Origin: Candidatus Latescibacterota bacterium
GTDB taxonomy: Bacteria; Latescibacterota; UBA2968; UBA8231
Direction of reading: 5' to 3'
NCBI GenBank assembly: GCA_965248355.1
Contig: OZ252098.1
Location: 5,312,001 to 5,376,000, forward strand
DNA length: 64,000 nt
Numbering within the stretch: position 1 is the stretch's first letter; every line of letters starts with the position of its first letter. Positions 4,701 through 7,700 of this stretch are shown piece after piece. The notes beneath the pieces are model-generated. The model saw only the letters and a program-made list of their open reading frames with translations, made no database searches and was not told where the DNA came from. The position numbers and the translations under genes were made by a program.

Positions 4701-7700
4701 TCACGGATCGACCTGGGCGCCGAAGACCCAGGGGCGGGCCTGCTTGATCGCCAGGATGTTGTCGCTGGTGATCTTGAACTCGATCTCCATGGCGAACGGC
4801 TCATCGGGTGCGGGGTCGTACTGTGTCTCGAAGTGGTCATGGATCACTTCAAGATGCTGGCGCAACTGATCCAGTTGGTCTTCGCTCATCAGCAGTTGCC
4901 CCCGCGGCACCTGGTTGGAGAAGCCAAGAACGGAGTAACCACCGAACTCCTGCAGCAGGATTTCCTCCGGTACCGAGTGCGCTTCGGGATTGGTGACCAG
5001 GTCCTCGCCGACCTGCGTGTTGACGTAGTGGCGTCCGTCTCTGCCGTAGATGGGGTCGAAGCTGACGGCGACGCCGTTGGCCAGTTCGTCCCTGTAGCTG
5101 GGATGCACCAGCACCCCCATCGCAGCTTCCATGTGGTCGATACGATGAAAATCGCGTTCGACGAAGGCGCGGAAGTTCCACAGACCGGCGTACACCTCCT
5201 TGAGGGACTTGGCGAGATCCTTCTCGTCCTCGCTGGGCTTCTGGCTCTTCGAGTCATACAGCCCCGCGCCGTTGAACCCGGGCAGATCCTCGTTGTTGGT
5301 GCTGGACCGGTAGCGACGGTTGATCCCCGCGGGGAACCCCTTATTCATGGTCTCGATTGCCGAGACGATCCAATCCGGCGTCTCCGCGTCCTCGATGGCC
5401 TTGCGCAGCTTCTTGAGTGAGTCCGCCTGGGCTTGGAAGTCCGTCTGGAAATCTTCATCCGCCAGCATGGTTTCAATGCGGGTGTAGAAGTCGTTGTGCT
5501 TCATGAACTCGTCGTAGAAATAGAACGGGATCGCGAACCCGTCGGGCACCGTCCCCGCCGGAAAACCCAGCTTCCCCAGCACGGCCACGTTGGCCGCCTT
5601 GACCCCGAACGCGTCCCAGTCATCGAAGCCGATCTCACTGAGCGGCGTGATCTCCGTGACCTCGAGGTCGCGTTGCGGGATCTGTTCATGGGCGGGCCGG
5701 GAAGACTCGTAGTGGGCCTCGACTTCCGCGGGTGTGGCCGCCCCAAGGTCCCAGCCGCCAACCGTCACCTCGTAGCGGACGTAGCTGCCGAGGAGCGCAT
5801 TGATGTCTAAATTGTCGATAGCGTTGCGGATGTAGGCATTAGGGATGCCGTCCTGAATGGCGCGCAGGTTGATGTGCGACAGCCGCGTCTGGGGTACGGT
5901 GCTGACGATGCCGGCCACGCGGGGCAGCTCGTTTGGCAGGGCCTCGTAGATCACCACGTCGCGCGGGTGGGGACGCTCGTCCGGGTTCATGACCCGCAGC
6001 AGGCCGTACCCTTCCCCCGGGTTCAACGCCAGAAAACTGGTTTCGCGGCGGAAGTCCGCGTCGAACACGAGGGACACGCGGGAATCCTGGAAGAGCGGCA
6101 AGTCGGACTGGTAATACCGAAGCTGATAGAACAATATGTAAAAGACCAGATTGTCCTCGAGCAGCGGCATGCCGGCGGCGAGAACCGTATAGAAGCGCGC
6201 AGCGAGGCTGAAGGAGTAACTTGGCTCAAGGTAGTAATGGTAGACCCCCGGATTGCCATCGGGAGCAACGAGGTCCGGATCGTAGGTGACCCTGCCATCG
6301 ATCCCCTCGTACCACTCAAAGCCGAGGGCCTCCCTGAAGTCCGCATGCAGCTTATACGTCTCGGTGTTTGCGAAGTAGATACCCACCTGGTCGGTATCGA
6401 TACCGACCGCTATGAAATTGACGGACCCGTGTACGGAGAGCGTCTCGAACGTTTCCAGATCGGGAATGGACAGGGCGCCTTCAGTGAGTGCGATGGCCGC
6501 CGCGGGGTTCACCGGGTTCATGCCCCCCAGGTTATTGAGTTCCGCGATGTCGTCGATGCAGTCACCATCCACGTCGGCCGGGTCGGCAACCAGATACTTC
6601 TCCACCCGGTAGCGCTCTTCGGGCAGCGCCGCTACGTTCTCGGCGAGCGTGGTCGTGCCCGCTTCGCCTCGCTTGACCAGGACCGGCACCTCTACCGTCG
6701 CGCCATCCACATCGTGCCCGACGTAGAGCACGAAGTACTCGTCGGTCGTGGACGCGACCACGATGGGCACCGCCGTCACTTCCACTTCCACCGGCGTCGG
6801 GGCGTCGCCGCCTTCCGGACAGCTCCTGCCCGACGGGGACCAGAGGCTCACGCCTTCGTCGTTGCGCGCTCGCACCTGCACCTCATAGCTCGTGCCCGGA
6901 GTCCGACCCGTGATGGTCGCGGCCCGTTCCGCGCCGTTGTGTGTCCAGGAGGTAAAGCCGCCGCGGTCCCCTTCCCGGTACTGCAGGTCGTAGTCGCTGA
7001 TGTCCGGGCCGGTGGTGGCCGGCTCGTCCCAGGTTACTGTCAGGCTCGTTGATGAGGCCGGTATGACCCGGGGTGCTGACGGGGTCTCGGGTGGCTCCTG
7101 TTGGTCTATCAGGTTGATCGCCACCTCGATGGTGTTGCTGCCGCCCTGACCGTCTTGCACGCGCACGATCACGACGTAGCTGCTCTTCTCCTCGTAGTCG
7201 TAGGCGACGCCCGCTATTGTCTGAAGCTGGTTGCCATCGAGAGTGAAGGAGGCCCGGTCCGTGCCTTCCAGACGGTAGCGCAGCGTCCCTCCGTCGCCGT
7301 CGCTTGCGGTTATCGGGTTGCCGATATCGGTTGTGCCCGTGGTGTTCTCGGCCAGAGTGCGCGTGGTGCTCGTACCCTCGGTGAAGGTCGGGGCCCGGTT
7401 GGCGATGGTTCTCACGTCAACGGACTCGGACCAGAGGCTCTCGCCTTCGTCGCTGCGCGCCAGCACCTGAACCTCGTAGGGCGTGTTGGCTTTCAACCCG
7501 GTGATGGTCGTGGTCGTGCCGGGACCCACGTGCGGCCAGTCGGTGAAGGCGCCGCCGTCCTCACTGTAATGCACGTCGTAGTCGTTGACGTCGGGGCCGG
7601 TGTTGACCGGCTCGGTCCAGGTCACCGTCAGGCTGGTGGAGGAGGCGGGCTCGACCCGGGGGCGGGCCGGGGCCTGGGGGGGTTCGTCGACGTCGGCCAC

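Follow-up and report, generated by a model that had tools for sequence, protein, structure and literature searches.

A widespread, apparently exported protein module with an ATP-grasp domain and a glucan, water dikinase-like domain order in a predicted Latescibacterota surface protein

Overview

Candidatus Latescibacterota bacterium carries, on the minus strand of a 64,000-nucleotide stretch of its genome (contig OZ252098.1, positions 5,312,001 to 5,376,000; the whole stretch is hereafter called the window), a single open reading frame (ORF) of 1989 aa at window positions 4701-10670 that is predicted to encode an exported multidomain protein. The last ~705 residues of this protein (C1284 to P1989; 4704-6821, minus strand) form a conserved and apparently mobile module, found at 60-86% identity over its full length in relatives from at least seven phyla, in which a histidine-bearing region precedes an ATP-grasp domain. 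By a narrow balance of probability, this module is a self-contained and horizontally mobile enzyme of the 'X, water dikinase' type, exported from the cell and with the domain order of glucan, water dikinase (GWD). The reading is built on domain content, conservation of catalytic motifs, export signals and spread across phyla, all of which are directly observed.

Enzymes of the dikinase kind spend ATP, and they are known as cytoplasmic or plastidial proteins. A consistently exported dikinase, if true, would amount to a new kind of extracellular biochemistry, implying either that usable ATP is present in the niche or that the chemistry is unlike the textbook reaction. The question of where the catalytic core of GWD and PWD came from would also gain a prokaryotic point of comparison in this family, and the module would bring an enzymatic member to the 'eukaryotic-like' surface proteins known from symbionts, so far read as binders only. 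Genomes often have more than one copy of the module, which is found fused to host-binding repeats, a sulfatase or a sugar dehydrogenase.

Distribution and conservation of the module

Relatives of the module were sought with the C-terminal 702 aa of the 1989-aa protein (P0002) as the query. This gave 1577 protein matches among 8000 scored candidates, and among the 120 matches listed of the 1577 the identity was 66-86% over 94-100% of the query, all of them with PF01326. With the same query, 1.84 billion cluster representatives searched without any filter yielded 4308 matches at E<=1e-3, of which 2527 reach E<=1e-10 and 1200 reach E<=1e-30, and at least 589 of 604 candidate stretches in contigs from one genome per species encode a module relative. 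From these contigs 74 loci, cited below by L numbers, were retained for locus comparisons. An alignment of 56 sequences (A1) combines the window module with 55 of these loci; it leaves out five interrupted ORFs (L002, L015, L032, L039, L056) and, by hand, 14 further copies or near-duplicates (L011, L016, L025, L029, L037, L045, L057, L060, L062, L064, L068, L071-L073). The candidate phospho-acceptor, His1599 (codon at 5874-5876, minus strand; H312 in A1), is invariant in all 56 and is present in 314 of 316 aligned His regions. With matches in the thousands and a histidine kept so nearly without exception, the module is an observation far beyond chance. Also invariant in A1 are D79, D81, D83 and D87 of an acidic DxDxDxxxD loop (C84 is kept in 55 of the 56), K404, R499, R501-N505, E507-P510 and G514-Y518, followed towards the C-terminus by E675, E677, K679, Q690 and R692. 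Mean column identity is 61% overall, 51% over the first 262 residues, and 68% in the His region, the most conserved part of the module.

The module opens with a conserved cysteine, which lies at most 30 aa upstream of a 'VPIVV' anchor in 64 of the 74 loci; the anchor was not found in eight loci, and two lack the Cys. In the window protein this residue is C1284 (6819-6821), which corrects the extent of the module given in the original prediction and sets its start at window position 6821. The full module is present in 234 of 266 family proteins, and among the 74 loci it can be found at any place within the host ORF. A survey of architectures, which the original prediction had called for, placed 235 modules as N-terminal (114), internal (83), essentially alone (28) or C-terminal (10), a count biased by the inclusion of 120 length-limited proteins from one search. 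The commonest placement is directly after a signal peptide (114/235), and the fusion partners are varied and mostly of extracellular type. The description of an adhesin ending in the module holds for the gene at 4701-10670 and fails for the family, in which a C-terminal module is confined to the ten cases just given. One protein (P0123) carries two full modules. Two loci, L019 and L066, have two PPDK_N stretches each, that is, two modules. The module frame is interrupted in the five loci left out of A1 for this reason, which are either pseudogenes or assembly frameshifts, and in L020 a stop lies just upstream of the module.

The ATP-grasp domain

The C-terminal nucleotide-binding domain of the original prediction proved to be a complete PPDK_N ATP-grasp. 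Pfam places PPDK_N at residues 1688-1981 (4728-5609, minus strand; part 4 of the module) with E 3.9e-24, above cut-off, and the domain was found in 56 of 56 family members. Alignment of A1 with E. coli PpsA (MG1655) by hhalign set module residues 391-695 on PpsA 14-339 (Prob 96%, E 1.9e-9), pairing GVKAA with GGKNA, RSSTNNEDLP with RSSATAEDMP, and MEIEF...IKQARPW with MDIEW...IVQARPE; in the window protein the corresponding stretches include GVKAAN, RSSTNNEDLPGFNGAGLYDS (5250-5309) and MEIEFK...IKQARPW. The ATP-site motifs (Lys of GxK; RSSxxxED; ExE...QxRP), whose residues we take, following the PPDK literature, to bind ATP and Mg, are represented by K404, R501-S503, E507/D508, E675/E677, Q690 and R692, invariant in the 56 sequences, and the motifs are kept in 222-230 of the 234 full-module proteins. 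Matches among PDB sequences were confined to the N-terminal nucleotide-binding domains of phosphoenolpyruvate (PEP) synthases and of rifampin phosphotransferase (RPH). To judge from its sequence, the domain is a bona fide PPDK_N ATP-grasp with its catalytic motifs.

The histidine-bearing region

Part 3 of the module (5634-6047, minus strand) is a putative phosphohistidine swivel domain, with His1599 inside the motif QTRLSHINLRAIQDG (5847-5891). When compared by eye, the sequence GYGLLRVM...PRDVVIYEALPNELPRVAGIVSTVPQTRLSHINLRAIQDGIPNAYI... parallels the swivel domain of PpsA around its His421. The Pfam family matched most often is GWD1_pHisD (PF22973), in six of 56 excised His regions at E<=10 and in one of 56 whole modules; the best match, that of L069, scores 21.1 bits (cut-off 27) with E 2.5e-4 and spans the His (segment 43-108). 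Aligned by hhalign with the swivel domains of five E. coli proteins (PpsA, PtsI, PtsP, FryA and PtsA), the region falls His on His and GIP on GIP with E = P = 0.025 and Prob 1.9%; when 316 family sequences are used P falls to 0.021, and a Streptomyces cousin, described below, gives 0.0058 when taken alone. The clusters that a language model finds similar to residues 100-395, those with PF01326 being excluded, include one in which 16% of members carry PEP-utilizers (score 0.90) and a Chlorophyta cluster of which 72% carry GWD1_pHisD (score 0.88), and the PEP-utilizers family set was common to 15 of 30 language-model matches. A phmmer search with the PpsA His region against every ORF of the loci gave none that was significant. 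The three favourable lines, which are more or less independent, agree in pointing to a swivel domain; none is decisive and they are statistically marginal, and the case is weak, though consistent. As regards the phosphohistidine-like motif that the original prediction named, an invariant His before the ATP-grasp is borne out, and the GWD-type identity of the domain around it is the weak part, with GWD1_pHisD under its cut-off and hhalign P at 0.02.

The N-terminal part of the module

Some 260 aa with invariant G, A and R residues precede the His region in every full module. Part 1 (6495-6821, minus strand) contains the conserved Cys, a small beta-rich unit, and the acidic loop DxDxDGDCxDD, which reads DVDGDCIDD at 6549-6575 and is probably a Ca2+ site; a disulfide between C1284 and C1371 is likewise probable. 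Part 2 (6048-6494, minus strand) is a domain of ~150 aa that belongs to no known family and is a candidate for binding the acceptor. No Pfam family covers residues ~1290-1680 of the protein, and a Pfam scan of the first 262 module residues returned scattered chance-level matches only; a profile search with this part gave no PDB sequence match at E<=10, and hhalign gave no match to PpsA. Because the Streptomyces cousin shares only module residues 234-696, the core from His to ATP-grasp would be older than the exported family, and the first ~233 residues appear to be what is special to the exported form.

Export and fusion partners

Several sequence features make the export of module proteins well supported. 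The window protein has an N-terminal hydrophobic segment, RPAALGLLVVSFLCLFPGALSES (10536-10604, minus strand), which follows Arg-rich residues and which its Kyte-Doolittle profile marks as a Sec-type signal peptide or signal anchor. No other stretch is strongly hydrophobic: 19-residue windows reach 1.6 or more only at starts 23-27 (residues ~23-45), and windows in the rest of the protein peak at 1.54. On this profile a membrane helix linking the stalk to the enzyme is rejected, as the original prediction had expected. Among relatives, a signal peptide of the '...AYAQ' type runs straight into the module in many loci, among them L013 (where the junction reads '...ALVVYPAYAQDPPSCPDPTPTAVEVDAVPIVV'), L015, L027, L054, L058 and L065, and a crude hydrophobicity test, which is lenient and accepts internal starts, finds signal-like N-termini in 62 of the 74 loci.

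The fusion partners point the same way. Extracellular-type repeats were found in 14 of 18 full ORFs scanned, the other four having PPDK_N only, and among 29 representatives taken at every fourth rank PPDK_N was present in all and extracellular-type domains in 25, including CWB2 and a proprotein-convertase P-domain; none of the 29 had a PEP-utilizers domain at E<=1e-8, or PEP-utilizers_C. Fourteen relatives picked by hand, mostly the most divergent (45-53% identical) and including a few short ones, gave a type IX secretion sorting domain at the end in four, CWB2 in two and SLH in one. An Atlas search added clusters from Bacteroidota that have Por_Secre_tail and others from Planctomycetota that have EF-hands. 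Individual fusions include Sulfatase with SGSH_C in L016 (3237-12029), a glucose/sorbosone dehydrogenase with LRR in L062 (2505-12356), a dockerin in L023, and DUF285, PKD and fn3 in a Cenarchaeum protein; the sulfatase and sugar dehydrogenase are possible clues to a carbohydrate acceptor. A catalytic module followed by Ig-like spacers and a wall anchor is the layout of surface exoenzymes. Anchoring or secretion systems of three unrelated kinds, an acidic loop of Ca type, and one Cys pair with few other cysteines (five in the 1989-aa protein, at 17, 36, 204, 1284 and 1371; a median of one per aligned module) together argue for a place outside the cytoplasm. The prediction of an exported protein is in this respect supported, by the N-terminal hydrophobic segment and by the signal peptides and surface anchors of relatives.

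Comparison with known enzymes and proteins

GWD and PWD (EC 2.7.9.4, 2.7.9.5) have a C-terminal PPDK_N and N-terminal carbohydrate-binding modules (CBMs), according to the available text of PMC11986951; the portion consulted of PMC12892837 gives His992 as the catalytic histidine of potato GWD and describes GWD and PWD as enzymes still lacking a solved structure. One source calls GWD a factor that eukaryotic systems require for producing starch (bioRxiv 10.64898/2026.09.25.754361, available part), and the GWD literature consulted, as far as it was accessible, treats the enzyme in eukaryotes only. The module resembles these enzymes in having its His region before a C-terminal PPDK_N (here His1599, then residues 1688-1981), in the absence of a PEP/pyruvate barrel, in having its putative acceptor-binding parts N-terminal, and in the weak GWD1_pHisD matches and the Chlorophyta look-alike cluster. 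It differs in that its carriers are prokaryotic and its protein is exported, whereas GWD and PWD are plastidial or cytosolic; in that it lacks CBM45 and CBM20, its N-terminal 260 residues being in no known family; and in that it scores below the GWD1_pHisD cut-off, in a comparison made through the Pfam model and published descriptions only. The GWD-like order of domains, His before ATP-grasp and opposite to PpsA (ATP-grasp 14-339, His421), is real, as had been proposed; membership of the module in GWD is not shown.

With PpsA and PPDK the module shares an ATP-grasp that is homologous over its whole length and keeps the catalytic motifs (PDB 2ols, 9dae, 8a8e). PpsA, however, runs ATP-grasp, His421 and PEP barrel, an order that the module reverses. 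No PEP-utilizers_C (PF02896) was found in the protein at E<=0.1, in keeping with the earlier statement that it has no pyruvate-binding barrel, and the NCBIfam PEP_synth models give 62-68 bits against cut-offs of 598-740. RPH (PDB 5hv1, 5fbs) likewise combines an ATP-grasp with a swivel His and phosphorylates the hydroxyl of an acceptor other than pyruvate, and its ATP-grasp matches the module at E 6e-8 in the PDB sequence search. RPH, which is cytoplasmic, runs from an N-terminal ATP-grasp (chain residues 36-285) through a domain that binds rifampin to a His domain at the C-terminus, whereas the ATP-grasp of the module is C-terminal, and NCBIfam RIF_Ptrans_rph gives 46 bits against a cut-off of 999.

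Among 72,556 plasmids the sole match was an uncharacterised Streptomyces protein of 670 aa, annotated as 'PEP/pyruvate-binding domain-containing protein' (WP_331760287.1 / WP_142270066.1). It is 28% identical to module residues 234-696 (BLASTP, E 4e-31) and keeps ...TPLSHTNV..GIPNA... and RSSSNAEDLPGFSAAGIYDS (PLSH..GIPNA; RSS..EDLPGF..AG.YDS), whereas its N-terminus is a different one and no signal peptide or extracellular domains are annotated in it. In both annotated records it stands in a conserved cassette, flanked by an ATP-grasp protein on one side and an MFS transporter on the other; a third full-length record is unannotated. The cassette, seen on two Streptomyces plasmids at L080:7157-11837 and L081:4586-9413, also has a divergent PAS regulator and is uncharacterised.

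The stalk of the window protein recalls the eukaryotic-like repeat proteins of sponge symbionts, which share its domain classes (YWTD/NHL, cadherin, fn3, LRR, Calx-beta). Those proteins are described as binders in the available texts of PMC11706023 and PMC7848895, and to this the module would add an enzyme; the module family also differs in reaching lineages with type IX secretion, CWB2 and SLH. An attached dikinase is not mentioned in the main text and one supplement of PMC11706023 or in the main text of PMC7848895. No description of the family turned up when the literature was searched for a dikinase that is exported or linked to sponges, though subscription papers and supplements may contain one, and a paper on giant genes has PPDK_N only in the list of a figure legend.

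Horizontal spread and integrity of the gene

The at least seven phyla in which the module occurs include one archaeon. Phyla are mixed among one another in a FastTree phylogeny built from the 56 modules, which requires 19 label changes against a minimum of 6 and 22.8 in shuffles. Well-supported pairs that cross phyla include Binatota L035 with Latescibacterota L030 (100), Acidobacteriota L026 with Chloroflexota L018 (100), and Actinomycetota L012 with Chloroflexota L010 (98); the Cenarchaeum copy is nested among Chloroflexota, and the window module groups with Latescibacterota L023, to which it is 80% identical. Paralogy and binning errors may inflate this cross-phylum signal; many of the records are titled as whole chromosomes. 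By tally, eleven contigs hold two or three of the 74 kept loci, and there is no second copy of the module within the 64-kb window.

The gene itself is mosaic in G+C content, at 0.56-0.68 in the module and the cadherin/fn3 part (4701-8100) against 0.74-0.78 in the YWTD/Ig part (8100-10500) and the neighbouring genes, a pattern that fits the acquisition of a 3' cassette by horizontal transfer. The 1989-aa protein is collinear with the ORF of L030 over 1637 aa, with 990 identities (60%), and the collinear part runs across the junction from fn3 to module. The fusion is thus present in an independent genome, and an assembly chimera, which the original prediction had flagged for checking, is ruled out by this collinearity.

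Going by record titles, the carriers include Ca. Poriferisodalis, Ca. Aldehydirespirator and Cenarchaeum. According to the available text of PMC11706023, the families of the first two include sponge-symbiotic lineages, and symbionts are enriched in 'eukaryotic-like domains', which comprise cadherin, LRR, NHL, PQQ, fn3 and Calx-beta. The window organism may itself be a sponge symbiont, to judge from these relatives and not from any result of its own.

Proposed function and alternative explanations

By analogy, we infer phosphotransfer, its acceptor and its source of ATP, as follows. The C-terminal ATP-grasp would bind ATP; the beta-phosphate would pass to His1599 on the swivelling domain and the gamma-phosphate to water, giving AMP and Pi; and the phospho-His domain would then swing to the family-specific N-terminal part, where a hydroxyl of an extracellular acceptor would be phosphorylated. 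The YWTD/cadherin/FN3 stalk would keep the enzyme on the cell surface or in the matrix. The most likely acceptor, held with far less confidence than the enzyme type, would be a polymer of the host or the matrix, for instance a glycan, a choice made because of the fusion partners and the exoenzyme-like layout. Taken further, the family would consist of extracellular 'polymer, water dikinases', spread horizontally among host-associated bacteria of unrelated lineages and at least one archaeon, that loosen or mark host matrix glycans by phosphorylating them, its core being the prokaryotic sister or source of the GWD/PWD core; this extended version we consider unlikely. Of the surface-displayed dikinase first proposed, the export features, the ATP-grasp and the His-first order have stood, and the GWD-type phosphohistidine domain is only weakly supported.

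A number of results weigh against an exported dikinase. We know of no source of ATP outside cells. In the His region, Pfam PEP-utilizers (PF00391) was found in none of 56 regions or modules, and GWD1_pHisD remained below its gathering score in all 56, the window's own segment giving no match; hhalign found no alignment with PpsA alone and put the probability of the match to the five swivel domains at only about 2%, and the profile of the region had no match among PDB sequences at E<=10. With the N-terminal 262 residues matching no family, there is no direct indication of the acceptor; no CBM was found in the protein, nor CBM45 or CBM20 in the 262 residues before the His region. The flanking ORFs revealed no conserved neighbour such as a phosphatase or a transporter. 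The host is a diderm, as the TonB-dependent receptor encoded in the window indicates, so that a Sec signal guarantees the periplasm only and passage through the outer membrane is unproven.

Several other explanations share some of this evidence. The same chemistry might serve a small-molecule acceptor (an antibiotic, phenolic or xenobiotic), the protein being a detoxifying phosphotransferase at the surface comparable to RPH or phenylphosphate synthase. Rifamycin-inactivating phosphotransferase is among the NCBIfam and PDB matches, and the only core relative from a cultured organism is the Streptomyces plasmid protein, which keeps the His motif and sits in an ATP-grasp/MFS cassette resembling those of small-molecule metabolism or export. 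That protein, however, lacks the first ~233 residues of the module and the export features, so its acceptor is little informative; the domain order of RPH is not found here, and adhesion repeats, sulfatase, sugar dehydrogenase, dockerin and wall anchors fit polymer-directed exoenzymes better, which leaves a small-molecule acceptor rather improbable. The module could instead mainly consume extracellular ATP (ATP to AMP and 2 Pi, with water as sole acceptor), blunting purinergic or danger signalling or harvesting phosphate. This would need no acceptor at all, it agrees with the catalytic ATP-grasp and His being most conserved, and the carriers are named after host-associated lineages (PMC11706023, available text); but if there is no acceptor, it is difficult to account for an N-terminal part of ~260 aa that is conserved (51%) and present in all full modules. 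Secreted nucleotidases of much simpler build exist, and the probability of pure ATP consumption is judged low.

The difficulty over ATP would disappear if host cells took the protein up, for instance together with symbionts that they phagocytose, as ATP is present there and the module could serve as an effector with a host molecule as its phosphorylation target. The partner domains, too, belong to the eukaryotic-like domains enriched in sponge symbionts (PMC11706023, PMC7848895, available texts). No translocation domain or secretion signal for host delivery was seen in the protein, however, its relatives with SLH, CWB2 and type IX secretion domains are anchored to the wall or surface, and the host association of the window organism is not established, so that uptake has little to commend it as yet. 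A non-catalytic adhesin unit that binds a nucleotide or other ligand (a pseudoenzyme) would suit a protein for which no activity is shown and whose location is unusual for an ATP enzyme; yet all residues that define the ATP-grasp site, like the His, vary little or not at all from phylum to phylum, and pseudoenzymes usually lose such residues, which makes this quite improbable. There is finally the artefact of a chimeric assembly with a cytoplasmic PEP-synthase-like gene, or of a misread topology, for which the fall in G+C content from ~0.76 to 0.56-0.68 in the 3' 3.2 kb might speak. The fusion recurs in L030 over the 1637 aa and in similar form in L023 and L031, signal peptides stand directly before the module in many loci, and the shift is better explained by horizontal acquisition of a cassette, as the tree suggests; an artefact is extremely improbable. 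Beside these alternatives, the exported dikinase remains the reading that we prefer.

Architecture of the remainder of the gene

The gene is read on the minus strand and ends with a stop codon at 4701-4703. Downstream of the hydrophobic segment in the protein, YWTD (LDL-receptor class B) beta-propeller repeats and Big_9/He_PIG Ig-like domains occupy ~residues 60-850 (8121-10493; the limits are coarse). In a Pfam scan of the whole protein, Ldl_recept_b/YWTD was found in ten stretches with E 2.7e-74, and five stretches of Big_9 together with He_PIG are interleaved with these repeats. A Pro/Gly linker (poly-Pro, poly-Gly, poly-Pro) follows at 7992-8126, and it is near this linker that the G+C content passes from ~0.76 to ~0.65. 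The stalk, with the order cadherin-FN3-cadherin-FN3, covers ~residues 895-1283 (6822-7988), Pfam giving two cadherin stretches (one at 920-991) and two of fn3 (1000-1086 and ~1203-1279), and leads directly into the module. When re-read from the DNA, the three motifs to which the original prediction had drawn attention were found in their places, and the His codon was exact.

Gene neighbourhood and other observations in the window

An all-against-all BLAST of the flanking ORFs of the 74 loci and the window found no universal partner of the module. A heterogeneous cluster of two-component-type proteins touches 17 of the 75 loci. An ORF of ~810-840 aa near the module at L003:234-2654, L008:4790-7276, L010:4806-7334, L028:15408-17792, L032:5102-7513 and L057:2118-4649 encodes, in L003 and L008, a hybrid sensor kinase-response regulator (GAF-PAS-HisKA-HATPase-REC-Trans_reg_C), and the other four ORFs fall in the same BLAST cluster. 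Several of the loci with sensor kinases are closely related to each other, and the link may thus be inherited and not functional. The neighbours of the gene in the window encode an RsmD-like methyltransferase, PhyH, His_biosynth and a gamma-glutamyltranspeptidase, and suggest no functional link to it. A scan of 4200-11000 for promoters and terminators gave nothing above shuffles.

Elsewhere in the window, an AAA_14/DUF4143 ATPase at 733-1859 (minus strand) is split in two overlapping frames, with AAA_14 and the first half of DUF4143 in 1074-1859 and the second half in 733-1683, and probably represents either an error of sequencing or a pseudogene with a frameshift. A tandem pair of Peptidase_S58 (DmpA-type aminopeptidase) genes lies at 20541-23527 on the plus strand, and the TonB-dependent receptor gene at 36799-38712 on the minus strand. 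It is followed at 38739-44828 (plus strand) by Na+-NQR genes (nqrA, an Rnf-Nqr membrane subunit and an NqrF-like reductase), which show a sodium-pumping respiratory chain; the window also contains PDH, nuo and ATP synthase genes. ARAGORN calls a tRNA-Pro(CGG) at 49731-49830 (minus strand) whose 100 nt are far above normal, and for which an intron, a long insert or a false call are possible. Between 50000 and 56000 there is an AT skew of about -0.4 (T far in excess of A on the plus strand), and this stretch overlaps a plus-strand Proton_antipo_M gene (a nuo/Mrp membrane subunit; 53886-56549), whose T-rich codons for hydrophobic residues may partly explain the skew.

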